Virus record (IMG/VR): IMGVR_UViG_2667527965_000003
Location: 1-48,868 of that record
From: a virus
Taxonomy: Duplodnaviria > Heunggongvirae > Uroviricota > Caudoviricetes
DNA length: 48,868 nt
Direction: 5' to 3' (one strand)
Position numbers and translations under genes: made by a program
Notes under the pieces: generated by a model
Told to the model about the DNA's origin: nothing
Databases searched by the model: none
The model's input: the letters and a program-made list of their open reading frames with translations, nothing else
In this document: positions 3,019 through 48,868 of the stretch, in pieces
How positions within the stretch are numbered: the first letter of the stretch is position 1
How the letters are laid out: each line of letters begins with the position of its first letter

Positions 3019-4110
3019 TTAGGCCACGTATTCCGGTTTCATATCTGCCAGGGTGATGCTGAACTTATCGTGCAGCTCGTCGCCCAGGTGACGTTTCGCC
3101 GCCGCCAGCGCGCGCTCGGCTTCTTCGAACCGCTCAGTTGCGCCCGGCTCGCCCGAATTCGGCAGGGAGTTAATCGCCGCCTCGACCCGGTTATACGCAT
3201 CCACCAGGTGGTAACGCTTCACGGCCTTGTTCTTAAGTTCGGTGTACAGCGTAGAACCCAGCGCTGCTTTAGCTGTTTCGATATCAGCACGAACTGCGCT
3301 GGCGCTATCAACATCCTGAGCAGCCTCAATTCGATCCCGGAAATCATCGGCCAGACCATCGATGTTGGCGGCCGATTCCTGCGCGATGTGCGTATGTGTT
3401 ACGGTGTCACCTTTGATATCAGCCAGGCTTACGCGCTGGGCGGGTGCCGGGTTGATCTCCTTCTCGGTGCGCTGCTCGACTTCATCCACACTGTTTACGC
3501 CAAGAATCACGTCAGGGCAGTAGAGGCTAGCCCAGCGTTTAACCCCCAGATAAGCTAGTTGCTGACGCGGATCGCTTGCCCAGAGTGTCGAGTTGCGAAC
3601 CTGAGCTTGAGAAAGCATGAGCACCAGCTCACGTGGTTCATCCTCGCCTTTCATGGTTGCCCACACCCGCACACCTACACCGGCCTCATCCTTTAAATCC
3701 CAGCCTGGCGCGAGGTATTCATTGCCTTTGCTGCTGGTTTTTTTAACAAAGCGTCCAACGATGTTTTCCCAGCTCCCAAACCAGTCATAATGGAGGCGGT
3801 CTTTAGTGGGTGACATTTTGGTGATCACCGCGTTAATCAACTGCGCCTCATAACCTAACGACCCGCTAATAATGTGAGTCTTTTGCGCTACAGCGAAAGG
3901 ATCCATACCCCATCGGGCTGCTTGCATCACTACTGCCATGCAGGCATCCGGCTTGCCGCGAAAGTGGTCAGGCACGAACGCGCCACTGTTAGCCATTACT
4001 ACTGAGAGAGTGCGCAGGCGCTCGAAGAGCTCCCCATTGGTTAAAATGGAGATGTTGTCGATCAGTTGCGTCTTGTTTTCGTTTGTAGAAATTGCGGTAG
4101 ACATGTTCAT
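3019..4110 (-). CDS. recT: RecT-family single-strand annealing protein
   Basis: 363 aa; MAVVMQAARWGMDP segment resembles the RecT core; immediately downstream of a RecE-like exonuclease gene in the same operon. Confidence 0.65.
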   Translation of the reverse strand: MNMSTAISTNENKTQLIDNISILTNGELFERLRTLSVVMANSGAFVPDHFRGKPDACMAVVMQAARWGMDPFAVAQKTHIISGSLGYEAQLINAVITKMSPTKDRLHYDWFGSWENIVGRFVKKTSSKGNEYLAPGWDLKDEAGVGVRVWATMKGEDEPRELVLMLSQAQVRNSTLWASDPRQQLAYLGVKRWASLYCPDVILGVNSVDEVEQRTEKEINPAPAQRVSLADIKGDTVTHTHIAQESAANIDGLADDFRDRIEAAQDVDSASAVRADIETAKAALGSTLYTELKNKAVKRYHLVDAYNRVEAAINSLPNSGEPGATERFEEAERALAAAKRHLGDELHDKFSITLADMKPEYVA

Positions 4111-20001: not shown

Positions 20002-20138
20002 AACCAGAACTAATCGAATCGCTTCGCATGCGCTGGCTGCGCCTTCGCATTTATCGCCGCCCGGGAACGGTGCTGGTGGACTATCGCATCCTTCGTAACT
20101 TTATTCGCATCTACCAGATTGCAGGAGCTGCAGCGTGA
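19998..20138 (+). CDS. Hypothetical small basic protein (46 aa)
   Basis: ATG at 19998 overlapping the ninG stop; ends overlapping the next start; Arg-rich. Confidence 0.3.
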   Translation: MKPELIESLRMRWLRLRIYRRPGTVLVDYRILRNFIRIYQIAGAAA

Positions 20139-20824
20139 ATACTCAATACCTGGAATTTGTACGCCAGCAGCTCATCGTTGCGACTGCTGATCTGAGCGGG
20201 GCGACCAAAGGGCAGTTGATGGCCTGGCTGGAGAACGCCCAGTTCGATACCGGGACATTTAAGCGGAAGAAGCCTAAAGTATGGGACGAAGAAAGCGAGA
20301 AGTGGGTGCCGGTTGATAACCCACCGATCCCCGGCAAACAGTCACACGCAAAGGGCTCACACATTCCTCTGGTTCAGCCGGTCGAATACTCCACCGCGTC
20401 GTGGCGCCGGGCGGTCCTGTCACTGGAGGAACATCAGAAGGCCTGGCTGCTATGGAACTACAGCGAAAACACGCGCTGGGAGAATCAGGTGTCGATCACC
20501 CAGTGGGCATGGGGCGAGTTCAGGGCGCAGCTGGTTGGTAAGAAAGTGGCCGGTAAGACGATGGAGCGGTTGAAGGCATTAATCTGGCTGGCGGCGCAGG
20601 ACGTGAAAGCTGAACTGGCCGGGCGGGAGACTTACCAGAAGCAGGAACTGGCTGAGCTATGCGGTGTGAAGCCGGATAACTGGAGTCATAACTACGCCGA
20701 TTACTGGAATGCCATGTGCGCCATATTTGAGCGACTTGATAGTGATGCTTTACTGCGAGCAGTGAGAACACGATCACAACAAAAATCAGCAAATTCGCAG
20801 CAAGGTATTGCAAAAGTCAATTAA
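20135..20824 (+). CDS. Putative late-gene antiterminator (Q-like)
   Basis: 229 aa; GTG start with AGGAG RBS; positioned after ninG and before the lysis cassette as Q is in lambdoid phages; call is mainly positional. Confidence 0.45.
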   Translation: MNTQYLEFVRQQLIVATADLSGATKGQLMAWLENAQFDTGTFKRKKPKVWDEESEKWVPVDNPPIPGKQSHAKGSHIPLVQPVEYSTASWRRAVLSLEEHQKAWLLWNYSENTRWENQVSITQWAWGEFRAQLVGKKVAGKTMERLKALIWLAAQDVKAELAGRETYQKQELAELCGVKPDNWSHNYADYWNAMCAIFERLDSDALLRAVRTRSQQKSANSQQGIAKVN

Positions 20825-20902
20825 ATAGGCCATATTCACGTCTACTTTGATATGCTGCCTTAACTTTAAGTGGCGGCATTGAAGAAAGAAGAAAAGATTC
20901 CA

Positions 20903-20934
20903 GCCCTGCGGTTAACCCCACGGGGCTTTGTCGT
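20903..20934 (+). terminator. Possible tR'-like terminator downstream of Q-like gene
   Basis: GCCCTG...CGGGGC imperfect hairpin followed by TTTGTCGTTTCT about 80 nt after the Q-like stop. Confidence 0.3.
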
Positions 20935-21392
20935 TTCTGGAGGGCCATAATATGTGACAGCCAAACGGATAGACCGCAGCCAAAAGGCAATGCAGCAGTC
21001 ATGATGCTGCCCTGAGTCGCTATTGAGCGAGCCTGTGTAGTGACGGGTCAAGGTTCATATATCAAAAAAAGCTCCGGTAGAGCAGCGCGAACGCCAGACG
21101 CGCACCGGTTATCAGCGGCGATGATGCGACAGCGACTCAAGGGCATGAGCGTAGCCACTCCGGGAAGTGGCAAAGAGTTTACAGCCCCGCTTTAGCGAGG
21201 CTTTTCGTTTTCAAATGGTCTTACGACACCAATATCTACCAAGTAGGTGTCCGAGCCAGCGCAAACTACGACTGATGAAGCTAAAAGCAGAAACCTAATG
21301 GTCTCGTAGTCCCCCGTGCGCTGGTATGGTGGGGGAGTGAGGTAGATAATTATATTTTTTAAGCGGTAAGCTCATAAGCATGTGGCTTAATC

Positions 21393-21923
21393 CTACTTCA
21401 GCTTAATAGAAAACCCCTCCCTGGGATCTATCATCTTTATTTCGAGCAGCCCGTTTATTTTACTTGTTTTTTCACGATCATCTTTAATATCTATTAACCA
21501 GGCATTAACTGCTGCCATTACGTCTTTGCCAAATTGCTCAACGGAAAGTAACAGCGTACTGTTAAACTGGTTGCAGTGGAATCCGCCCGGACCAGAAGTA
21601 TTCTGAACAAATACAAAATCTCGCAATACATCTCTTGCGTTCTGAGAGGTGATATCACCACTTCCTTCATGTAAATAGGCGCATCGCAACGCATAGAAAT
21701 CGGAACCTGTCAGGAACACACGATCTTCTCTGTTGCCAGCTATGTTACGTGTATACGCATGTTTTAGATATTTGTTATACCAGTGTATGGTTCTTGCCTT
21801 CGAGCCTTTGTTTGGGTCATCTATTTTCCCGCAAATATCAGGAAGAGTCAGGGATATAAACAATACTGAGTACCAATTTTTGGTTTTGATAGACATATCT
21901 AGTGCTTGAATAAAATTATTCAT
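21393..21923 (-). CDS. HEPN-motif protein (candidate abortive-infection or toxin RNase), low-GC moron
   Basis: 176 aa on the strand opposite to flanking late genes; contains RCAYLHEGSG (Rx4H with following Gly); GC visibly lower than backbone. Confidence 0.45.
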   Translation of the reverse strand: MNNFIQALDMSIKTKNWYSVLFISLTLPDICGKIDDPNKGSKARTIHWYNKYLKHAYTRNIAGNREDRVFLTGSDFYALRCAYLHEGSGDITSQNARDVLRDFVFVQNTSGPGGFHCNQFNSTLLLSVEQFGKDVMAAVNAWLIDIKDDREKTSKINGLLEIKMIDPREGFSIKLK

Positions 21924-22141
21924 TTCGGCAACTCCATTTGATTAAATTACTATTTAATACAATCTAATAGAATCCAACTAAAAGTTGGTTCCAGCAACAT
22001 AATTACGTCAACTCTCTGAATTTGATCACCATTCCAGGCCCTGTAGTGGGGCATTTTTCTATTTGAGGCTCCGGGCAACACCCTTAACACGCTTTGTTGT
22101 TAATTCACCACGAGAGCCCGACCTCTACACATGGACCACCT

Positions 22142-22540
22142 ATGTCTGAACCTCTAACCATTGCTGGCGGTGTCACGTCCGCAACTATCGGAGTGACGTT
22201 CGCATCTTTGTTCCCCGAGGCAACGCCCGGCGTAATGCTGTGCGCGCTGGCTGGTGCAGCAATGTACGTTCTGACATCCGATCCACACCAACTGTGGAAG
22301 CAGTTCCTGTTCGCCGTCATCAGCTTTGTCGGCGGGGTTTTCTTCTCGGTGCCGATGGCGAAGATACTGGCCGGGGTGATTAATACCGCCCTTGGCCTGT
22401 TGCAGCCGCCGGTAAGCATCGAGGTATCCCCGAATATCGGCGCACTGGTTTCCGCTTCCATCTCTGTCGCAGTCCTGCTTCGCATCCTCGCCAAATCAAA
22501 ACGGGGGAAGATGCCGGGACTGGAGGAGGAAGGCCAATGA
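22142..22540 (+). CDS. Putative holin
   Basis: 132 aa from ATG at 22142 with several hydrophobic segments; first gene of lysis cassette; start uncertain. Confidence 0.5.
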   Translation: MSEPLTIAGGVTSATIGVTFASLFPEATPGVMLCALAGAAMYVLTSDPHQLWKQFLFAVISFVGGVFFSVPMAKILAGVINTALGLLQPPVSIEVSPNIGALVSASISVAVLLRILAKSKRGKMPGLEEEGQ

Positions 22541-22818
22541 CATGGCAAAACATCATTCTGGATGCAAACGCCATAATCTGTGCCCTGATCGTCGTCAGGC
22601 TGATGTTCTTCAGTAAAAGCGGTAAGCGGCACAGGCCAGGTGTAACGCTGATGGCGTACCTGATGATTCTGGCCGCCGGTTTCACGGCGTTTCGCATTCT
22701 CTACGGTAAATACCTGCAGGTGGATCCGGGAGAGCTGATGCTGAACGTCGCCATATGCGTCGCGGTGTGGCGCTCCCGCGGTAATCTCGCCAAAGTTTTT
22801 CAGAAGGCCGGGCAATGA
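22537..22818 (+). CDS. Putative holin/antiholin-like membrane protein
   Basis: 93 aa with two hydrophobic helices (IICALIVVRLMFF, LMAYLMILAAGFTAF); overlaps neighbours. Confidence 0.5.
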   Translation: MTWQNIILDANAIICALIVVRLMFFSKSGKRHRPGVTLMAYLMILAAGFTAFRILYGKYLQVDPGELMLNVAICVAVWRSRGNLAKVFQKAGQ

Positions 22819-23357
22819 ACAAAGACGACATCTTCAACGCTATCCTCGGCAAAGAGGGCGGTTACGTGAATCACCCTGATGACAAAGGCGGCCCGACGAA
22901 CTGGGGCATTACCCAGGCGACAGCTCGCGCTCATGGCTATACCGGTGATATGCGCAACTTGACCCGCAAGCAGGCTCTGGAAATCCTCGAGGCTGATTAC
23001 TGGTATGGTCCACGCTTCGATCAAGTGGCGGCCGTCTCACCAGTTATAGCTGCAGAACTCTGTGACACCGGCGTGAATATGGGGCCATCCGTACAGGTGA
23101 AATGGTTCCAGCGCTGGCTGAACGTATTCAACAACCAGCAGCAGTTTTATCCCGACCTGATCGCCGACGGCCAGATTGGGCCGCGCAGCATCAGCGCGCT
23201 GAAATCTTTCCTGGCGAAACGCGGTAGTGAAGGGGAGGCCGTATTGCTCCGCGCATTGAACTGCAGCCAGGGTCAGCGTTATCTCGAGCTGGCAGAGCAG
23301 CGCGCGGCTAACGAGTCATTCGCCTATGGCTGGATTCGGGAGCGCGTGACCCTATGA
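22815..23357 (+). CDS. Endolysin, GH108-type lysozyme with peptidoglycan-binding domain
   Basis: N-terminal EGGYVNHPDDKGGPTNWGIT resembles the GH108 motif; C-terminal part resembles a PG-binding domain. Confidence 0.7.
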   Translation: MNKDDIFNAILGKEGGYVNHPDDKGGPTNWGITQATARAHGYTGDMRNLTRKQALEILEADYWYGPRFDQVAAVSPVIAAELCDTGVNMGPSVQVKWFQRWLNVFNNQQQFYPDLIADGQIGPRSISALKSFLAKRGSEGEAVLLRALNCSQGQRYLELAEQRAANESFAYGWIRERVTL

Positions 23358-23626
23358 CCAAACTGAAAGCCATCCTGGCGTTTATCGTCACTGCTGTGCT
23401 GGTGGTGCTGGGCGCTTTTGGCCTGGGCAGCATGCGTGGCCGGGAGAGGGCGGAAGCCAAAGCCGATAAGCAGCGAACCGACGAGAACGCCGCAGCCACC
23501 AAAGCAGCTGCAGAACGCCGCGTTGAAGTAACCAAGGAGGCCAGCAATGTTCACCAGACGGTTAACCATATGCCTGATGACGATGTCGATCGTGAGCTGC
23601 GCACAAACTGGACCCGCAAAGGTTGA
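23354..23626 (+). CDS. i-spanin (Rz-like)
   Basis: 90 aa with N-terminal TM helix then charged coiled-coil; contains embedded o-spanin gene. Confidence 0.6.
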   Translation: MTKLKAILAFIVTAVLVVLGAFGLGSMRGRERAEAKADKQRTDENAAATKAAAERRVEVTKEASNVHQTVNHMPDDDVDRELRTNWTRKG

Positions 23627-24187: not shown

Positions 24188-24838
24188 ATGGAGCACTCCA
24201 TGCCGATCGATGACGAGCGCAGGCCATATCCACCGGTTAGCTTCATTAACGCTGAGAACTGGCACCCTTACACCAGACTGATCCCTGCCAGCGAAGTGAA
24301 TGAGTGGGTAAACCGGCAAATCCTCAGTGACGAAGGCAGTATCCACAACCCAGACCATGAGCATCTGATCGATGCGGATCTCTGCTTCATGTGGGCGTCA
24401 GACTCGTTCGCGAAGAAAGGGCGCTTTGTGCTCGGCCAGGCTGAACAGGTAATGCTGCGTGCTGGTGGGTGGCAGAAGGCCCGGATGGAACAGCAGATGC
24501 ATGAATGGTTCGGGCGCGTTCCGAAGTACATCATCACGCTGGCTGCCGATTACTGTTCACAGTGCAGCGACCTCGAGTTCTGCGCGCTGGTTGAACATGA
24601 GCTTTACCACATCGCCCAAGCCACTGATGATTTTGGTGCGCCGAAGTTCAACAAAGAGACCGGCCAGCCAGTGCTTACTCTGCGCGGCCACGACGTCGAA
24701 GAGTTCGTTGGCGTAGTACGCCGGTACGGTGCCAGCAAAGATGTGCAGGAGCTGGTGGACGCGGCCAATGCGCCAGCGGAAGTCGCTCACCTTGATATCG
24801 CCAGATCATGCGGAACGTGCATGCTGAAACTGGCTTAA
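24188..24838 (+). CDS. HExxH-motif protein (putative phage metallopeptidase)
   Basis: 216 aa; HELYH motif (ALVEHELYHIAQ); located just upstream of terminase small subunit. Confidence 0.4.
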   Translation: MEHSMPIDDERRPYPPVSFINAENWHPYTRLIPASEVNEWVNRQILSDEGSIHNPDHEHLIDADLCFMWASDSFAKKGRFVLGQAEQVMLRAGGWQKARMEQQMHEWFGRVPKYIITLAADYCSQCSDLEFCALVEHELYHIAQATDDFGAPKFNKETGQPVLTLRGHDVEEFVGVVRRYGASKDVQELVDAANAPAEVAHLDIARSCGTCMLKLA

Positions 24839-41144: not shown

Positions 41145-41525
41145 ATGTTCAATCCTGATAAATACCGTTCTGTCGAGTGGCAGAAGGGCGGACGCGCTTA
41201 CCCCGCGCTGGACTGTTTTGGCATCGTCAACGAAATCAGGCGCGATCTGGGCCTGGCGCCGTGGCCGGATTTTGCCGGGGTCACGAAGGATGATAACGGC
41301 CTCGACCGGGAGGCGCGCGGGCTCATGGCTGGCCTGACGCGATGTGAACCGGCCCCGGGCGCGGGTATCGCCTGTTATTCCGGCTCTGTGGTGACACACG
41401 TTGCCATCGTGGTCGAGATTGACGGCCAGCTGCGCGCCGCAGAGTGCAATCCCCGCACTAACGTGACCTTTCTGCCGCTGGCGCGGTTTGCGCGCCGCTT
41501 TGTTCGCGTGGAGTATTACCAGTGA
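41145..41525 (+). CDS. Tail-associated NlpC/P60-like protein
   Basis: 126 aa; conserved Cys (ALDCFGIV) and His (VTHVAIVV) spaced as in C40 peptidases. Confidence 0.4.
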   Translation: MFNPDKYRSVEWQKGGRAYPALDCFGIVNEIRRDLGLAPWPDFAGVTKDDNGLDREARGLMAGLTRCEPAPGAGIACYSGSVVTHVAIVVEIDGQLRAAECNPRTNVTFLPLARFARRFVRVEYYQ

Positions 41526-44500
41526 CGATCCGAATCTATCCCTCCCGGCTGCCGGGCGAACCGCTGGAAACGCATCAACATGAAACGGTGACACTTAGCG
41601 CCTGGTTTGCGCAGAACGTGAAGGACTGGGCACCGGATCAGCAGCATCCGGTCGCGGTTGAAATCGACGGCGTTCCCGTCCCGGCGTCAGAGTGGCCACT
41701 GTGCGTTATCAAGCGAGAAACTGACGTCCGGATGTATCCAGTGCCCTACGGCACCGGCGCAGAAATCGCGATCTGGGTTGCCGTCAGCGTAGCGGTCGCC
41801 TCTGCTGCGTACAGCATCTACATGATGAGTACAATGTCACAGGCTGGAGGTGGCGGTGCCCAAGCAGCCAGCGGTGACCAGATTGACCTCAACCCGGCCA
41901 AAGCGAACGCGGCGAAACTGGGCGACCCGATCCGGGAAATCTTCGGAAAATATCGCGTCTGGCCTGATTACGTCGTGCAGCCGGTGAGCCGGTTCGTTAA
42001 CGAGACCAGCATGGAAACCAGCATGTTCCTGTGCGTGGGTGTCGGCGACATGGTGATTAACCAGTCCGATATCCGGATCGGCAATACCCCGATCTCCGCG
42101 TTCGGCACTGACGTCCGTTACACACTTTACCCGCCTGGCTCCACGGTATCCGGCGACACGCGCACTGAAAACTGGTTCAACTCACCAGAGGTCGGCAATA
42201 CCGGCTCCGGTACCGCCGGGCTGGACCTGGGCTCAAGCGGCCCGGAGACGGTCAGTATTATCGCGGATGCGCTGGTCGTGTCCGGAAACTCCATCACGTT
42301 GGTTGATGTATCGTCGTCTGGCGATGAGGAGATCCCGCCGTCGTGGACTGTCGGAACGGTCATCACCGTCTTGGCTCCAAAATCTTACACGGTCGTGTCG
42401 TCTGGCGGTTACAGCGTGATTTATGGCGGGATAGAGGAGCTGGCACCAGTGGTCGGAATGCCGGTATCCCTGAACTATAACGGCAACGACTACGACCTGG
42501 TGATCGCCAGCTATGCCCCGGGCGTTCCGGCGGTGCCGGGGGTAGGAGGTAGCGCCGCCAGAATAACCGCCAGTGCAGCGCCGACGACATACGATTTCAG
42601 TAGTACGCCTGTCACGTTCAGCATCAGCTGGCAGGGCACGACCTACCCGGTATCGCTGGTTACCAATTACGTCACCATGTCGGGGCTGGTTTCCTCGATT
42701 ACCTCCCAGCTCTCAGGTTCCGGACTGGTCGCGCGCGATAACAGCGGACGGCTCGAAATCGGCGAGGTCAGCAGTCCCTATGCTGGCGGATCCATCACCA
42801 ACAGCCCATTACCCGTAGCTGTGTTCGGTGATGCCCCGGTCAATACGGCTGGCGTAAAATCTACGGGCGGCACGGCCGAGGTACGGGCACACATCACCCT
42901 GGCGTACAACAGCGCCACCGGCACGCCGTTTACGGGACTGCCGGAGGGCATTCAGCGGTTTTCTCTGGGGTTGTCCGGCAATCAGTTCCGGATAACTGCT
43001 GTGGATAGCCAGACGGTCACGGTTGAGCGGCTTACAGTCACTACCGGACCGGGCGGTGAGACCATCACCACGCCGGATCCATCGTGGCCTGGCTTCACTG
43101 AGCGTACGCTGCTGGATGCGACCGTGACGGGTGTCAGCGACGATTACGAATGGGTTGGCCCGTTCCTGGCCTGCCCCGACGGTGAGACCCTGGACGCATT
43201 CGAGGTGAACATCAACTTCCAGAGCGGCCTGGTGCGTTACACCGACCAGGGGAATAAGCGTTCCATGCCGGTACGCCTGGTAATCCAGTATCGCAAGGTT
43301 GGCACCACCACCTGGCAGCAGCAGTCTCCGTTCTATTCCCGCAGTACCGAGAACCAGATCGGGTTTACGCATCGCTACAGCGTGTCTCCTGGGCAGTATG
43401 AGATCCGGATGCGCCGCACCGAACCGGTTAAGGGTGGCAGCACTCGCGACCAGGTGTTCTGGCAGGCGCTGCGCTCACGGCTCAGTAAGCGCCCCACGAA
43501 ATACGACGGCGTCACCACCATGGCGCTGACCGTGCGCACAGGGAATCGCCTGGCGGCCATGTCCGATCGCCGGATTAGCGTTACACCAACCCGGATTTAC
43601 AGCGGTGGCAGAACGGCGCGGAGCATCAGCGGGGCGCTTTACCACGTGCTGGAGTCGCTGGGGTTCACGGTCAGCCAGATTGACACGGCGGCGATTGACG
43701 CGCTGGAGCAAACCTACTGGACGCCCCGCGGTGAGAAATTCGACTGGGCGAGCGGTGAGAGCAAGTCTGCGCTCGAGGTGTTGCAGAAAATCACCAACGC
43801 AGGGATGGGATATTTCCTTCTGTCTGACGGGCTGGCGTCTGCCGGCAGGGAAGGCATTAAACCTTGGGTAGGCATGATCACCCCACAGGAAACCACCGAG
43901 GAGATGCAGACCGCGTTTAAGGCCCCATCACAGGACGATTACGACGGCGTGGACGTGACCTATATCAACGGCACCACCTGGGCAGAGGAAACCGTGCAGT
44001 GTCGCCAGCCTGGCAACCCAACACCGCTGAAAATCGAGAGCTACACGCTGGATGGCGTTCTGGACGAGGACCGGGCATACCGCATCGGCATGCGCCGACT
44101 ACTGGGCTACCAGCTGCAGCGCCTGCAGCACACCACCTCAACAGAGATGGATGCACTCTGCTATGAGTTCATGGATCGTATTGTACTGGCTGACGACATC
44201 CCTGGTGGTCAGCAACTGAGTTGCCTAATTACCGATATGACGTATGACAGTAGCAAAATCACCATGACGCTCAGCGAGCCGCCGGACTGGTCGTTCCAAA
44301 GCCCGCGCGTGATTATCCGCCATCAGGATGGCAGGGCATCGCCAATGGTTGTGCCGACACGCATTGACGACTTCACCATCTCGGTGCCGTACAGCGCCGC
44401 GCTGGAGCCTGAATTGTGGGCGATGAACGACGCGTACATTGAGCCGCCGCGCTTGCTGTTCTGCTCATCAGTTCGTGTGCCGTATGACGCACTGGTGGGG

Positions 44501-44605
44501 GAAATATCTCCGGGCAATGACGGAATCAGTCAGGTAACAGCCATCCAGTACCACCCAGGGAAGTACGCCTACGACGACGCCACCTATCCCGGCGACGCCG
44601 CTTAA
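41522..44605 (+). CDS. Tail tip / host-specificity protein (J-like)
   Basis: 1027 aa; GTG start overlapping upstream stop; large size and position after tail assembly genes. Confidence 0.6.
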   Translation: MTIRIYPSRLPGEPLETHQHETVTLSAWFAQNVKDWAPDQQHPVAVEIDGVPVPASEWPLCVIKRETDVRMYPVPYGTGAEIAIWVAVSVAVASAAYSIYMMSTMSQAGGGGAQAASGDQIDLNPAKANAAKLGDPIREIFGKYRVWPDYVVQPVSRFVNETSMETSMFLCVGVGDMVINQSDIRIGNTPISAFGTDVRYTLYPPGSTVSGDTRTENWFNSPEVGNTGSGTAGLDLGSSGPETVSIIADALVVSGNSITLVDVSSSGDEEIPPSWTVGTVITVLAPKSYTVVSSGGYSVIYGGIEELAPVVGMPVSLNYNGNDYDLVIASYAPGVPAVPGVGGSAARITASAAPTTYDFSSTPVTFSISWQGTTYPVSLVTNYVTMSGLVSSITSQLSGSGLVARDNSGRLEIGEVSSPYAGGSITNSPLPVAVFGDAPVNTAGVKSTGGTAEVRAHITLAYNSATGTPFTGLPEGIQRFSLGLSGNQFRITAVDSQTVTVERLTVTTGPGGETITTPDPSWPGFTERTLLDATVTGVSDDYEWVGPFLACPDGETLDAFEVNINFQSGLVRYTDQGNKRSMPVRLVIQYRKVGTTTWQQQSPFYSRSTENQIGFTHRYSVSPGQYEIRMRRTEPVKGGSTRDQVFWQALRSRLSKRPTKYDGVTTMALTVRTGNRLAAMSDRRISVTPTRIYSGGRTARSISGALYHVLESLGFTVSQIDTAAIDALEQTYWTPRGEKFDWASGESKSALEVLQKITNAGMGYFLLSDGLASAGREGIKPWVGMITPQETTEEMQTAFKAPSQDDYDGVDVTYINGTTWAEETVQCRQPGNPTPLKIESYTLDGVLDEDRAYRIGMRRLLGYQLQRLQHTTSTEMDALCYEFMDRIVLADDIPGGQQLSCLITDMTYDSSKITMTLSEPPDWSFQSPRVIIRHQDGRASPMVVPTRIDDFTISVPYSAALEPELWAMNDAYIEPPRLLFCSSVRVPYDALVGEISPGNDGISQVTAIQYHPGKYAYDDATYPGDAA

Positions 44606-44626
44606 CAGCAAATCAAAATTATCTGA

Positions 44627-44647
44627 CCCGCTTCGGCGGGTTTTTTT
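44627..44647 (+). terminator. Rho-independent terminator
   Basis: CCCGC-TTCG-GCGGG hairpin plus TTTTTTT. Confidence 0.65.
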
Positions 44648-44662
44648 ATGCCCGGAGCGAGC

Positions 44663-46591
44663 ATGACGACATACGCCACGAATAACCCGATAGGGTCGAT
44701 GGATCCGAAGGACCTTTTCGATAACTCCCAGAACCTTGATTACGCGCTGAATGACATTACCCGCGCGATCTGGACTGACCGATTCGGCAGAAGCAGGAAA
44801 AGCTACTGGGGGATGGAGCAGGCGTTCTCAGCTCAGTTGCTCAGTCAGCAGGAGCGTTTCAATACTTTCATCCAAAGCTCTGGCTATAAGGTTATTGGTG
44901 AATATACCAGCGGCCCTTTAACAATTACTGACTATAACCAGCTGATTAGGTATCAGGACGCATTCTGGAAACTGACTGCCACAACAGATCTCCCCTATAC
45001 GACCACCGGGAATGATGCTGCGTCATGGGTGAACGACTCCGTGCATTTCTTTAATGTAGGGGATGGGGAACTGCGTCAGGAATTAGCCGCGCCGGGTGGC
45101 GCTGGACTTGTCGGTGGGCTGGTAACACCTGTAACCTGGTCTGGGTTTTCCGGCGGCGCTGACTCTACTGGCATTGCAGCATCTGACGCGGCATTTGCAG
45201 CTGCGAATGCTTCTGGTTCGGGCGTTTTCGTACCCGCCGGCACATACAAAATCTCTGGCAATACGGACATGTCAGCATGTGAGTTGATGTTTGAGAAAGG
45301 TGCCACTATTGACGTGCAGGCGGGTGCAACCCTTACTGTCGGCAGGATCCTGTGTGGGTTACATCATGTTTTCTCAGGCGCTGGCAGCGTAGTTTTCACG
45401 ACCAGCACAATAAAGGCGCACCCGGAGTGGTTTGGTGCGTCACGAAACGTTGATTCCACCGCTGCATTAACTAAATGCCAGAGTGCCTGTTCGCCTAATA
45501 AAATCACCATCGCTCTGGTAGACGAATATCTGATCGACACTCTGGACTGGGACAGGCGCGTCCCTTCAGATGCCAGCCAGCGCTCAGCATTCAAGCCTAT
45601 TCCAGGCGCAACAAAAGGCGTGAAGTTAACGGGTGGTAACTCTGTTGGAAAGTCCTCCTTTCCCGCCATATCTGGGTTTGCTGGATATGGACTGCGCGTT
45701 GTTGGAACCAGTCTGCTCAATCTCTATATCCCTGAAATTCAGCAGTGCGGTGATGCACTCATCCTGGAAACCTCAGGGGCCGACACGACACTACTGAATA
45801 CAGAAATCAGCCTGACATCTATATCTGCGTGTACCAATGCTATCGTCTTTGTTGCAGATGCACTGGCGAACGTGATGCAGGGCAATAAGGTTTACTGTAA
45901 TTTTATTGCGAACTGCGAAAAGGCAGTTCTGTTCCGCGACAATGGTCTGGCCGGGCCGGGGCCGAACTGGGACAGCAACCAGGTAATCACCCAGGCGATA
46001 GACCCTACACCATCAAGAACTTCTGCGGTGATGTTAAAAAACGAATGTTCGTATGCGATAAACAGATTTGTCTTTAGGGTTGAGACCTGGTGCGGTGGGC
46101 TGGCATCAACCGGTAAATTTATCTCCGGCCGGTTTAATGACCTTGATGCTTATATAAACCTGTCCCAGAATCCTGTTGCCGGGATGCTGGCATACATAGG
46201 GGCATCTAACCGGGTAGATTTCAGCTCAGCCAGGGGAAGGAATACCACGCCGGTCACAGCTGTCAACGCATCTAACTCAATGCCATCATTCAACGGTGGG
46301 GTCCCCCTGTTCCATAACGTTGTGAAACTTAAATATATCCCTTCTGTTGACTGGGCAAATAACACTCAAAAGCAGATTTATATTTATCATCAGTTAACGG
46401 ATCAGAACACCAACGCATTTACTGTCCAACCCCCAGACTCGGGTTCGTTAAGGGGTACCACAGTAGATTCCGTAATAGATAACAGCCTCACTGTTCCTTA
46501 TGAGATTGTAATTAACCTGCGAAATGTGTCGGGTACGACTATTCCTGCAGGAACGGAACTCGAATTTAAACTCCGCGTTGGCCTGTATTAA
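44663..46591 (+). CDS. Tail fibre / tailspike protein with divergent C-terminal receptor-binding region
   Basis: ATG at 44663 with GGAG RBS; C-terminal half Gly/Ser/Thr/Asn-rich with lower GC, consistent with a beta-helical receptor-binding or depolymerase-like domain. Confidence 0.55.
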   Translation: MTTYATNNPIGSMDPKDLFDNSQNLDYALNDITRAIWTDRFGRSRKSYWGMEQAFSAQLLSQQERFNTFIQSSGYKVIGEYTSGPLTITDYNQLIRYQDAFWKLTATTDLPYTTTGNDAASWVNDSVHFFNVGDGELRQELAAPGGAGLVGGLVTPVTWSGFSGGADSTGIAASDAAFAAANASGSGVFVPAGTYKISGNTDMSACELMFEKGATIDVQAGATLTVGRILCGLHHVFSGAGSVVFTTSTIKAHPEWFGASRNVDSTAALTKCQSACSPNKITIALVDEYLIDTLDWDRRVPSDASQRSAFKPIPGATKGVKLTGGNSVGKSSFPAISGFAGYGLRVVGTSLLNLYIPEIQQCGDALILETSGADTTLLNTEISLTSISACTNAIVFVADALANVMQGNKVYCNFIANCEKAVLFRDNGLAGPGPNWDSNQVITQAIDPTPSRTSAVMLKNECSYAINRFVFRVETWCGGLASTGKFISGRFNDLDAYINLSQNPVAGMLAYIGASNRVDFSSARGRNTTPVTAVNASNSMPSFNGGVPLFHNVVKLKYIPSVDWANNTQKQIYIYHQLTDQNTNAFTVQPPDSGSLRGTTVDSVIDNSLTVPYEIVINLRNVSGTTIPAGTELEFKLRVGLY

Positions 46592-46657
46592 CCCAGTTAA
46601 AGGCGGCAGCAATGCCGCCATCTTCCGGTAAATCTCAGTAAGAACTACCCTATAAGG

Positions 46658-46957
46658 ATGATAATGAGAGACTTATCTCCGCTAATACATGCGGTTGTTG
46701 CCATTACGGTGCAATTAGCTTTCGGCTGGCTTTCAGGAATGTGGGCTGCTGGCGGCGCGATAAGCTGCATCTGGTTTATCGCTCGTGAGCACACCCAAGC
46801 CGAGTATCGCTGGATCGCGCAGTTCGGCGCAGGGAAGCGCGCCAATATGCCATGGTGGGGCGGTTTCGACTGGCGAGCATGGAATCCGCCCAGCCTCCTA
46901 GACTGGCTTGTTCCGGTACTGGCATGCGCTGTCGTTTATTTCGTATCCACCCTTTAA
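46658..46957 (+). CDS. Small inner-membrane protein of unknown function
   Basis: 99 aa with hydrophobic helices (LIHAVVAITVQLAFGWL; LLDWLVPVLACAVVYFV) and Trp-rich middle; located after tail fibre. Confidence 0.4.
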   Translation: MIMRDLSPLIHAVVAITVQLAFGWLSGMWAAGGAISCIWFIAREHTQAEYRWIAQFGAGKRANMPWWGGFDWRAWNPPSLLDWLVPVLACAVVYFVSTL

Positions 46958-47013
46958 CTACTGTCGGCAGCATTGATAGGCGCCGCCGCATTGATCTGCA
47001 CCTCCTTTAAAAA

Positions 47014-47033
47014 TACTGTATATATAAACAGTA
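47014..47033. promoter_or_regulatory. LexA (SOS) box overlapping a promoter
   Basis: TACTGTATATATAAACAGTA, one mismatch from consensus; TTGATC -35-like hexamer 17 bp upstream; ATG of next gene 19 bp downstream. Confidence 0.7.
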
Positions 47034-47051
47034 AAATAATAAGGAGGGGTT

Positions 47052-47291
47052 ATGCCACGCAGAATCGATATTGAGGGTGCTTTTCACACAGCCATTAAAC
47101 ACGAGTCCAACGGGCGCCGTACGGTGACTACTGAGGACTTCGTGAAGCACCTGGCCCGCGCTAACTGGAACTGGTCGCTTAAAGAGGCGAACGACTGGAT
47201 CGAGAGCCACGTTTCTACCTTTAAGGATGTTTCGACCTGTGAGGGCCAGGCGCGCACCTTCATGCTCTACAACCCGAACGGAGGCCTGTGA
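47052..47291 (+). CDS. DinI-like small protein, SOS-regulated (tentative)
   Basis: 79 aa; AAGGAGGGG RBS; directly downstream of LexA box; N-terminus MPRRIDIEG and ANDWIESH segment loosely resemble DinI (MRIEVTI... / ADDWFVSE). Confidence 0.4.
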   Translation: MPRRIDIEGAFHTAIKHESNGRRTVTTEDFVKHLARANWNWSLKEANDWIESHVSTFKDVSTCEGQARTFMLYNPNGGL

Positions 47292-47292
47292 C

Positions 47293-47610
47293 ATGGGCTT
47301 TCCATCTCCAGCTGCTGATTACGTTTCTCAGCGAATGACCCCGGAGCTCATTTGCGGCGTCAGTATTGATACCCGCATTCTTGAAACATCATCCGGTTTC
47401 GCATTAATCGAACCGGTTACCCGGTTAGTGCAAGGTCAGGTTCTGCTGATTTTGTCCGGCGGCAGGACGCAGTTTGTGAAACTCAGGGGCAGGGCATTAA
47501 TCACTGATGATGGTGAAGCGATCGAGGGGGAGGCGGCGGAGGAAGTTGAGGTTCTGGGGCGAGTGACGTTCTTCATCAACAGTGCGCTGCAGGATGACAG
47601 AATTGTGTGA
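47293..47610 (+). CDS. UmuD'-like (S24-fold) protein starting at the UmuD cleavage-product N-terminus
   Basis: 105 aa; begins MGFPSPAADYVSQR, matching the UmuD' N-terminus GFPSPAADYVEQR; C-terminal region (GQVLLILSGGRTQFVKLRGRALI) aligns loosely with UmuD; no umuC-like gene adjacent. Confidence 0.5.
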   Translation: MGFPSPAADYVSQRMTPELICGVSIDTRILETSSGFALIEPVTRLVQGQVLLILSGGRTQFVKLRGRALITDDGEAIEGEAAEEVEVLGRVTFFINSALQDDRIV

Positions 47611-47629
47611 ATTTGTGGATCGAGGTGCC

Positions 47630-47659
47630 CACGAATTTCACTCGTCGCCCACTCGAATA
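47630..47659 (+). promoter_or_regulatory. Putative integrase arm-type sites near attR
   Basis: CACGAATT and CTCGAATA direct repeats resembling the repeats at 639-667. Confidence 0.25.
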
Positions 47660-47768
47660 ATAAAGTAACGGTTTGATCTTGAAAGAACGCAATGGTAAGT
47701 GTTGTAACGCTTATTTTGGGGTGTTTTCGATGGTAACTGCTTGATAGATAACGAAGAACAGAGCTTGA

Positions 47769-47802
47769 GCCGTAAACAGGAATCGTGTTCGGTCTCTTTT
47801 TA
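47769..47802. repeat. attR: right copy of 34-bp imperfect direct repeat
   Basis: CCGTAAACAGGAATCGTGTTCGGTCTCTTTTTAT; 31/34 identical to 572-605. Confidence 0.65.
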
Positions 47803-47932
47803 TCTGTTAAAAGCCAGAAGCATTTCCTTCGCTGACTTTATAGTCAACCATAACACACACTCTACTGTCTGAGTCCAGCATTTTTTAACATTCTTGTTAA
47901 GATTATGTGATCTTTAGCGCGGGAGGAAAATA

Positions 47933-48592
47933 TTGATGAAACAGCCTGCGCCCGTTTATCAGAGAATTGCGGGTCATCAATGGCGACATATCTGGCTTTC
48001 TGGCGATATACACGGTTGTCTTGAGCAGTTGCGCCGCAAATTATGGCATTGTCGTTTTGATCCGTGGCGAGATTTACTTATCTCAGTGGGAGACGTTATC
48101 GATCGTGGGCCGCAAAGTTTACGTTGTCTGCAGTTACTGGAACAACATTGGGTTCGTGCGGTAAGAGGCAATCATGAACAGATGGCGATGGATGCGCTGG
48201 CATCCCAGCAGATGTCTTTATGGTTGATGAATGGCGGCGACTGTTTTATTGCGCTGGCAGATAATCAACAGAAACAAGCGAAAACGGCGCTGGGGAAATG
48301 TCAGCATTTGCCCTTTATTCTTGAAGTACACAGTCGCACCGGCAAGCATGTTATTGCTCATGCCGATTATCCAGATGATGTTTATGAATGGCAAAAGGAC
48401 GTCGATTTGCATCAGGTCTTGTGGAGCCGCTCGCGATTAAGTGAACGCCAAAAAGTGCAGGGAATTACAGGTGCTGATCATTTCTGGTTTGGTCATACAC
48501 CGTTGCGACATCGCGTGGATATTGGCAACCTGCATTATATTGATACCGGTGCTGTCTTTGGGGGCGAACTGACTCTTGTGCAATTGCAATAA
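47933..48592 (+). CDS. pphA: Serine/threonine protein phosphatase 1 (host gene)
   Basis: 219 aa with metallophosphatase motifs (GDIHGC, GDVIDRG, GNHE); recognised as E. coli-type PphA. Confidence 0.8.
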   Translation: MMKQPAPVYQRIAGHQWRHIWLSGDIHGCLEQLRRKLWHCRFDPWRDLLISVGDVIDRGPQSLRCLQLLEQHWVRAVRGNHEQMAMDALASQQMSLWLMNGGDCFIALADNQQKQAKTALGKCQHLPFILEVHSRTGKHVIAHADYPDDVYEWQKDVDLHQVLWSRSRLSERQKVQGITGADHFWFGHTPLRHRVDIGNLHYIDTGAVFGGELTLVQLQ

Positions 48593-48784
48593 TTAAAAAT
48601 CACCGTACTCCTGTGCAGGTCGCCAGAAACCATCTATAAAATCCTCAATCGGAAAACAACCGCCATGGCGGATCCGTTGATCGCTCATAGAATGAAGACA
48701 CTGCTGTTCCGTGTTGTAGACATCCACAACAATATCTTCACAACCGCCATCCAGGTAGCAAACAAAAAGTACCAGCGCGAACAT
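48593..48784 (-). CDS. yebW: YebW-like small protein (host gene)
   Basis: 63 aa from internal Met (MFALVLFVCYLDGG...) of the 91-aa track ORF; convergent with pphA; identity from memory of gene order and length. Confidence 0.4.
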   Translation of the reverse strand: MFALVLFVCYLDGGCEDIVVDVYNTEQQCLHSMSDQRIRHGGCFPIEDFIDGFWRPAQEYGDF

Positions 48785-48868
48785 TTCATCCCCGAAGTGT
48801 GGTGCCGTACCGTTAAGTTTAGGAGAGATTTTACAACGGGGGAATAACCAGGACAAATAACCCGCCAT

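Follow-up and report, generated by a model that had tools for sequence, protein, structure and literature searches.

A widespread phage gene for a small, predicted three-pass inner-membrane protein carried with receptor-binding-protein genes

Introduction

Exclusion factors are encoded beside receptor-binding-protein (RBP) genes, downstream of J-like genes, in siphoviruses other than the one described here (PMC11990801). Cor of phages phi80, N15 and HK022 and Llp of T5 are small envelope proteins encoded in this position; they are dispensable for virion production, and are outer-membrane lipoproteins that block one protein receptor and change along with the RBP. T4 Imm, P22 SieA and HK97 gp15 are small phage inner-membrane proteins that are not linked to RBP genes, each of which acts on a narrow group of phages. 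T4 keeps imm in an early region of the kind found in the neighborhood of rIIB. In O-antigen conversion of the GtrABC/Oac kind, a membrane protein is encoded close to the end of the prophage, next to genes for tailspikes that target glycans. The class I holins, of which lambda S105 is one, are about 100 aa long and have three membrane helices, and the tail-fibre chaperones of the Caudo_TAP family are soluble proteins that the fibre requires.

The gene described here lies in an Escherichia coli prophage within a 48,868-nt stretch of DNA (the window; IMG/VR record IMGVR_UViG_2667527965_000003), and its product resembles these systems in part. Like Cor and Llp, it is a small, presumably envelope-located protein encoded beside an RBP gene and downstream of a J-like gene, and it appears to be dispensable for virion production; unlike them, it is predicted to be a three-pass inner-membrane protein, stays near-invariant behind 29 RBP types, and has no family-wide lipobox. 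It shares its small size and predicted inner-membrane location with T4 Imm, SieA and gp15, and one family member occupies the early region of a T4-like phage, but the RBP linkage sets it apart. T4 Imm itself belongs to a separate PHROG and has no sequence relationship to the small protein (hhalign of a 132-sequence profile against T4 Imm gave a probability of 0.08% and E=0.62). The likeness to GtrABC/Oac is one of position and of being a membrane protein; however, we find a single 97-aa gene with no partner glycosyltransferase and no Pfam match, GtrA-like and acyltransferase_3 Pfam domains are absent from the window protein and 40 relatives, and the placing of start and stop codons suggests that the gene is expressed jointly with the tailspike gene and not as a conversion operon of its own. 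With S105 the protein has in common a length of about 100 aa, three hydrophobic helices and probably late expression, but its predicted orientation is the opposite (N-in, C-out), it has a conserved polar motif in place of a charged C-terminal tail, it is encoded outside the prophage lysis cassette, and it matches no holin profile above cut-off: holin PHROGs gave no match among 40 diverse members, and the one weak match to Phage_holin_8 (1 of 40 members, E=0.0036) falls below the Pfam cut-off. In contrast to the soluble chaperones, it is predicted to be an integral membrane protein, and neither it nor the 40 relatives match Caudo_TAP.

Wider comparisons gave the same picture. Pfam holds no family for the window protein at E up to 1, and no convincing family among the 40 relatives; NCBIfam and, at E up to 1, the defence models of PADLOC-DB gave no match to it either. 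Sequence and profile searches of the PDB were negative, and Foldseek against viral models returned only a 42-aa fragment of the same family. We found no publication on the family under phrog_1443, other names or protein accessions, and the literature on SNIPE, Tai, DefensePredictor, P2 hotspots and infant-gut lambdas does not mention it. The family thus has no detectable relation to any characterized family or fold, and is catalogued but uncharacterized.

Gene and predicted product

The ORF list of the window gives a + strand frame at 46658-46957, which a first, sequence-only reading took as a 99-aa protein. An AAGGA Shine-Dalgarno motif lies 5 nt upstream of an ATG at 46664 and is overlapped by the ATG at 46658, and homologues are mostly 97 aa long and begin at a Met aligned with ATG 46664. 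This spacing and alignment make ATG 46664 the likely start of the small membrane-protein gene and shorten the product to 97 aa; translation from the other in-frame ATG, at 46658, would make it two residues longer. Of 73 non-redundant loci, 60 have a Shine-Dalgarno-like motif ahead of the aligned start. The description of the protein as Trp-rich is borne out, with Trp at nine of the 97 residues, six of them within residues 50-81. The elements of the gene and its product are as follows.

46654-46658, + strand: Shine-Dalgarno motif AAGGA (sequence; similar motifs before the aligned start in relatives)
46664-46957, + strand: likely coding sequence, with its stop codon, for the 97-aa membrane protein of phrog_1443 (ORF list, homologues, phrog_1443 match, purifying selection)
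46676-46735, + strand: predicted transmembrane helix 1 (residues 5-24), with the conserved face H9, A13, Q17, G21 (AlphaFold2, conservation)
46742-46783, + strand: predicted transmembrane helix 2 (residues 27-40; W27, G30, G34, F38) (AlphaFold2, alignment)
46784-46885, + strand: invariant Trp-rich loop (residues 41-74), predicted cytoplasmic, REHTQAEYRWIAQFGAGKRANMPWWGGFDWRAWN (K+R count, conservation, pN/pS)
46886-46948, + strand: predicted transmembrane helix 3 (residues 75-95), with conserved S77, D80, P84, C88 (AlphaFold2, conservation)

The small ORF is a real gene. It matches the phrog_1443 profile with E=3.5e-37 over residues 5-97 of the 99-aa form, a PHROG annotated as "unknown function", and all of 40 diverse relatives match the same profile; the only other PHROG hit is to a fragment family, phrog_34165. 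Selection was analyzed over 70 distinct coding sequences. Mean pairwise pS is 0.72 and pN 0.13 for residues 34-74, a pN/pS of 0.18, and the invariant R41 is encoded by all six Arg codons. Synonymous sites are therefore saturated while residues 34-74 are almost invariant, a pattern that indicates purifying selection at the level of the protein and not of the DNA. A DNA-level element or recombination anchor, which was considered as a candidate, is refuted by the pN/pS together with the structure prediction.

AlphaFold2 with a 132-sequence alignment predicts an integral membrane protein (pLDDT 98, pTM 0.85) with helices at residues 5-24, 27-54 and 75-95, and the same helices are returned from a shallow alignment (pLDDT 75). 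This agrees with the earlier description as a small membrane protein, but the two hydrophobic helices proposed there become three transmembrane helices, because the first hydrophobic stretch is modeled as a helical hairpin. The call of TMHMM in the phage 21 record differs, with two transmembrane helices. Helices 1 and 2 are joined by a two-residue turn of the pattern G-[N/D/E]-W, predicted to be periplasmic; helix 2 extends to residue 54 and so into the loop of residues 41-74; and the protein ends two residues past helix 3. In 125 members, the central loop averages 5.3 K+R residues per sequence, compared with 0.75 for the N-terminal tail, 0.66 for the C-terminal tail and 0.12 for the turn that joins helices 1 and 2; this puts about 6.1 charges on one side of the membrane against 0.8 on the other. 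By the positive-inside rule, this distribution favors a three-pass inner-membrane protein with the N-terminus inside, the central loop in the cytoplasm and the C-terminus outside, of which only two to three residues would be exposed to the periplasm.

Conservation is concentrated in polar residues. Across 132 diverse members R41 is invariant and E42, Q45, A46, E47 and W73 are conserved in at least 90%, as are H9 and P84, while Y48, R49, R59 and D80 are common throughout the family. Each of the three helices has a conserved face with i+4 spacing, and the AlphaFold2 model combined with conservation places H9, R41/E42 and D80 near the cytoplasmic face and Q17, G34 and C88 in mid-membrane, which suggests a buried polar pocket open to the cytoplasm. 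A lipoprotein was also considered, since C35 follows a hydrophobic stretch of 30 residues. It is ruled out, as C35 is the sole candidate and no cysteine is conserved family-wide: C35 is kept only in enterobacterial members, is A, G, I, V or S in diverse ones, and lies inside transmembrane helix 2 in the AlphaFold2 model.

Prophage setting

An E. coli prophage of about 47 kb, complete and bordered by short pieces of host DNA, fills the window; it interrupts the chromosome between yebY and pphA. Its attL (578-605) and attR (47776-47803) are identified by a 28-bp direct repeat whose two copies differ at one position, and the last 1.1 kb of the window (pphA, yebW) is about 99% identical to every E. 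coli chromosome. At the same yebY-pphA site, E. coli strain 98232 carries a degraded relative with IS1 and IS3 insertions. The small ORF lies about 0.8 kb from attR, in the following surroundings.

20135-20824: Q-like antiterminator gene
22094-23626: lysis cassette of two holin-family genes, endolysin and spanin
41522-44605: TipJ-like host-specificity gene
44625-44642, + strand: terminator-like hairpin GACCCGC-TTCG-GCGGGTT with T-run, between the TipJ-like gene and the fibre gene (terminator scan)
44648-46591, + strand: 647-aa tail-fibre/tailspike gene, the upstream partner (PHROG tail-fibre families)
46602-46619, + strand: 7-bp GC hairpin with GCAA loop, in the spacer that separates the fibre gene from the small ORF (RNA fold z = -3.6)
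47014-47033: near-consensus LexA box TACTGTATATATAAACAGTA, ahead of a two-gene operon
47052-47291: 79-aa ORF of the LexA-box operon, phrog_3893
47293-47610: 105-aa UmuD'-like ORF of the LexA-box operon, phrog_3469

The location between a tail fibre and an SOS operon, as first described, holds: the 647-aa fibre gene stands on one side and the LexA-box operon with its UmuD-like gene on the other. The 105-aa UmuD'-like ORF matches the HumD/UmuD NCBIfam models over its first ~20 residues only, and on this basis the protein may be without the usual protease core. In E. coli CUPF06 the fibre gene and the small ORF fall within one block of 92.6% identity (44624-47036 of the window), and a recombination breakpoint lies just past the small ORF, at 46991-47036. 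An Rfam search of 44000-48868 returned no RNA family.

The lysis cassette is far from the small ORF, which lies about 23-24 kb downstream of it. A role as the primary holin of the prophage is ruled out by the presence of its own Q gene and holin-holin-endolysin-spanin cassette (20135-23626). A transposase-like ORF (24188-24838; phrog_513, E=5.5e-102) is located just downstream of the lysis genes.

Linkage to receptor-binding-protein genes

At 79 IMG/VR loci a large ORF (550-1300 aa) has the small gene as its immediate 3' neighbor. The 36 upstream ORFs that were sampled are fibres or tailspikes, with PHROG assignments to tail fibre or tail spike and Pfam matches that include Tail_spike_N, Peptidase_S74, the P22-type Head_binding domain and the tail-collar fibre domain, as well as the pectate-lyase beta-helix, GDSL esterase and endosialidase N-terminal domains. 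The arrangement occurs in sipho-, myo- and podovirus-type loci, and the linkage persists in distant members with 34-53% identity. In phage 21 and its lambdoid relatives, the small gene comes after the side-tail-fibre gene with one gene between them, for a 92-aa, very acidic soluble protein (phrog_1361, unknown function; 3707-3985 of the phage 21 locus L001, and about 17 IMG/VR loci). The first two of these genes overlap stop/start in phage-21-type loci and the third, the small membrane gene, follows within 12 nt, so that the three look like one translational unit. Elsewhere, the P2-like myovirus phiHAP-1 and P2-like prophages have the gene between fibre genes and the sheath gene, the jumbo Aeromonas phage ACP1 has it flanked by two large fibre-like genes, a P22-coat-type contig has it behind a pectate-lyase and S74 tailspike, and an 80-kb contig with PhoH and ClpP genes has it behind a large unannotated ORF; the fibre-adjacent arrangement is repeated in E. 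coli ST131 and a cdt-carrying prophage. On a 154-kb IMG/VR contig (L015, 2905-10047), three tailspike genes stand in tandem, and a separate copy of the small gene follows the first and the second; the encoded proteins share 78% and 60% identity with the window protein.

Exceptions occur among distant members. On a T4-like contig (L090), the gene is among early genes beside a metallophosphoesterase gene, with rIIB about 5 kb away and no RBP gene near, and in another case the gene comes after lysis genes and ahead of a tailspike gene. Judged by gene order, the small gene is carried as part of the RBP cassette. The proposal that it belongs to a right-end accessory region is thus correct for this prophage, where the gene is close to the right end, but does not extend to other phages, in which it tracks fibre and tailspike genes, including mid-genome positions and one between two fibre genes. 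Cargo genes begin within ~100-500 bp after it in some phages, namely cdtABC in E. coli SCU-115 (L104, 4196-6296) and sitABCD in phage 21 (L001, 4383-7832), so the small gene marks a boundary between RBP cassette and cargo. In another locus (L002) an acyltransferase gene is present in the same neighborhood, where related phages have O-antigen conversion genes.

The RBPs upstream differ far more than the small protein does. Clustering of their last 200 residues gives 29 unrelated clusters, and that of their N-termini gives 18 groups, while the small proteins behind those unrelated fibres remain 57-98% identical, and 157 pairs of small proteins have at least 88% identity behind unrelated fibre C-termini. 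The 29 unrelated C-terminal clusters imply that no single receptor is the counterpart of the protein. A receptor-specific mask of the Cor/Llp kind is ruled out by the near-invariant core, set against the 29 RBP C-terminal clusters, and by the predicted periplasmic exposure of two to three residues; a chaperone for one fibre fold is ruled out by the diversity of the upstream RBPs.

The virulent phages 6947, ZCEC08 and HC8A retain only a partial match, to residues 42-95. In Escherichia phage 6947 (L085, 3961-4160) the N-terminal half is lost and an internal stop is present, behind an intact S74 fibre gene; the fragment family phrog_34165 is this remnant. Decay behind an intact fibre gene argues that the small gene is dispensable for fibre assembly and lytic growth, and excludes an essential assembly factor. 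The remnant suggests that the fibre cassette was captured from a prophage. A partial copy is also found in the virulent siphovirus anhysbys.

Expression

The start of the small gene overlaps the stop of the fibre gene, or lies no more than 30 nt from it, in 31 of 64 non-redundant loci. A promoter scan found no sigma-70-like promoter between the fibre gene and the small ORF in the window. The hairpin at 46602-46619 was not reported by the terminator scan and has no U-run, which indicates that it is not a canonical terminator. Late transcripts must read through the terminator-like hairpin at 44625-44642, so that expression of the fibre gene and the small ORF would depend on antitermination. With no promoter, no U-run at the second hairpin and the start/stop overlaps, read-through of the late operon is the simplest explanation; taken together, they speak for expression as part of the late tail operon and against a lysogen promoter, and the small gene is most probably co-transcribed and co-translated with the fibre or tailspike gene. 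An autonomous moron with its own promoter and terminator is unsupported on the same three grounds.

Possible functions

We tentatively favor a role in exclusion or conversion, of the sort raised in the first reading, for an accessory envelope protein that acts on a conserved inner-membrane partner, and regard this as possible rather than probable. In the proposed mechanism, an accessory inner-membrane protein would be inherited and expressed with the RBP cassette, and its polar and Trp-rich motif at the cytoplasmic face (H9, R41, E42, Q45, E47, D80 and PWWGGF) would interact with a component of the host inner membrane that is conserved irrespective of serotype. This interaction would alter membrane passage or the displayed glycans, and would not mask a particular receptor; the beneficiary would be the lysogen or infected cell rather than virion assembly. 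A conserved inner-membrane component is preferred to a receptor as the target because the protein is invariant behind any RBP and its motif is probably cytoplasmic. Exclusion or conversion is favored because the product is a (predicted) membrane protein, appears dispensable, is encoded in the slot of exclusion genes, borders cargo (sitABCD, cdtABC or the umuD-like operon, in different phages) and is found in the early region of one T4-like phage.

Topology, expression timing, host partner and exclusion phenotype are all points that we infer, and several observations stand against the favored reading. Late lytic expression, as predicted, would be an odd time to protect a lysogen; the known RBP-linked exclusion proteins co-vary with the RBP, which this protein does not; and a motif facing the cytoplasm cannot contact an incoming virion directly. 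The conserved H, E, E, D and R residues would fit an enzyme or ion site just as well as a surface for binding, and the tight synteny across morphotypes could mean a lytic-cycle role tied to the fibre.

Such a role might be that of a membrane-anchored helper, made together with the RBP, that aids its folding, trimerization, attachment or membrane-local synthesis. The position immediately 3' of RBP genes across morphotypes and in distant members would follow naturally from it, as would the close spacing at 31 of 64 loci, the separate copies behind two of the three tandem tailspike genes in L015, and the intact gene of jumbo Aeromonas phages. We nevertheless consider a lytic helper rather unlikely: the gene has decayed in phage 6947 while the fibre gene has not and is only partially matched in ZCEC08 and HC8A, the 29 C-terminal and 18 N-terminal RBP groups offer no common binding surface, no similarity to Caudo_TAP or other chaperone families is seen, and the L090 copy has no RBP gene in its vicinity. 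Moreover, the folding of P22-type tailspikes and of S74 fibres is known to need no separate chaperone. An unlikely alternative of a different kind is a small membrane enzyme or carrier binder, in which the polar pocket at the cytoplasmic face would bind or process universal lipid-linked glycan intermediates (undecaprenyl-phosphate or -pyrophosphate) or a conserved enzyme of the pathway. The supply of surface glycan would then be cut or altered whatever the serotype, which would explain why the gene travels with glycan-targeting RBPs. No known enzyme family or fold resembles the protein, a chain of 97 aa would be very short for an enzyme that does not oligomerize, and late expression would leave the existing surface glycan in place, as has been argued (PMC11990801); on the other side, H9, R41, E42, Q45, E47, R59 and D80 vary little or not at all among members down to ~27% identity and are predicted at one depth near the cytoplasmic face, the Trp/Gly-rich loop would sit at the membrane interface, S74 fibres and enzymatic tailspikes make up most of the upstream RBPs, conservation does not depend on the type of RBP, and O-antigen conversion genes occur in the same neighborhood of related phages (the acyltransferase of L002).

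A holin, antiholin or lysis-timing factor is improbable. The size and helix number are those of class I holins, expression is likely to be late, lysis genes adjoin the small gene in some loci (LydB in L039, a holin_8 gene in L053, an M15 endolysin and a spanin-like gene in L095), and one member gave the weak Phage_holin_8 match noted above, but the prophage has a complete cassette of its own (22094-23626), most loci have no lysis gene nearby, and all 40 members match phrog_1443 or the fragment family and no holin PHROG. The missing charged C-terminal tail also speaks against lysis, and a strictly conserved polar motif with a 34-residue loop is atypical of holins. We give next to no weight to a non-functional explanation, whether a chance ORF or conserved DNA that anchors recombination in fibre-cassette swaps. 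The gene does flank highly mosaic fibre genes and has the breakpoint at 46991-47036 beside it, yet the pS of 0.72 against a pN of 0.13, the six codons used for R41, the pLDDT of 98 that AlphaFold2 obtains from co-variation in the alignment, and the 380 diverged cluster representatives at 50% identity, with most of the 150 listed at ~90-110 aa, all contradict it. The remaining probability falls to functions of other kinds.

Distribution and significance

The family is very common. A set of 5.8 billion proteins clustered at 90% holds 604 homologues, and IMG/VR contains 431 related stretches. Among complete E. coli genomes at least 1864 of 5426, about a third, carry the family, with a median of two copies, and it occurs also in phages of Citrobacter, Klebsiella, Enterobacter, Leclercia, Aeromonas and Halomonas. 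All of the listed E. coli copies are annotated only as "hypothetical protein", and the names of the cluster members are likewise all "hypothetical". Its fixed slot makes the gene a marker of RBP cassettes regardless of morphotype or receptor type, and a good candidate for a general envelope function that is exchanged along with host-range genes. An effect on phage entry or surface glycans, if there is one, would bear on host-range prediction and on phage therapy against lysogens; action on lipid-linked glycan carriers, if true, would be a new mechanism and would define a previously unrecognized class of inner-membrane proteins linked to RBP cassettes. A protein of 97 aa, with a confident structure prediction and six or seven polar residues that do not vary, is also readily accessible to experiment. 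No domain fusions were found in the family, and its longer members are gene-calling artefacts or loop-insertion variants; in two of the variants, P0147 and P0223, the conserved central loop is split midway by an insertion of ~43 aa that is acidic and rich in Tyr and Trp.
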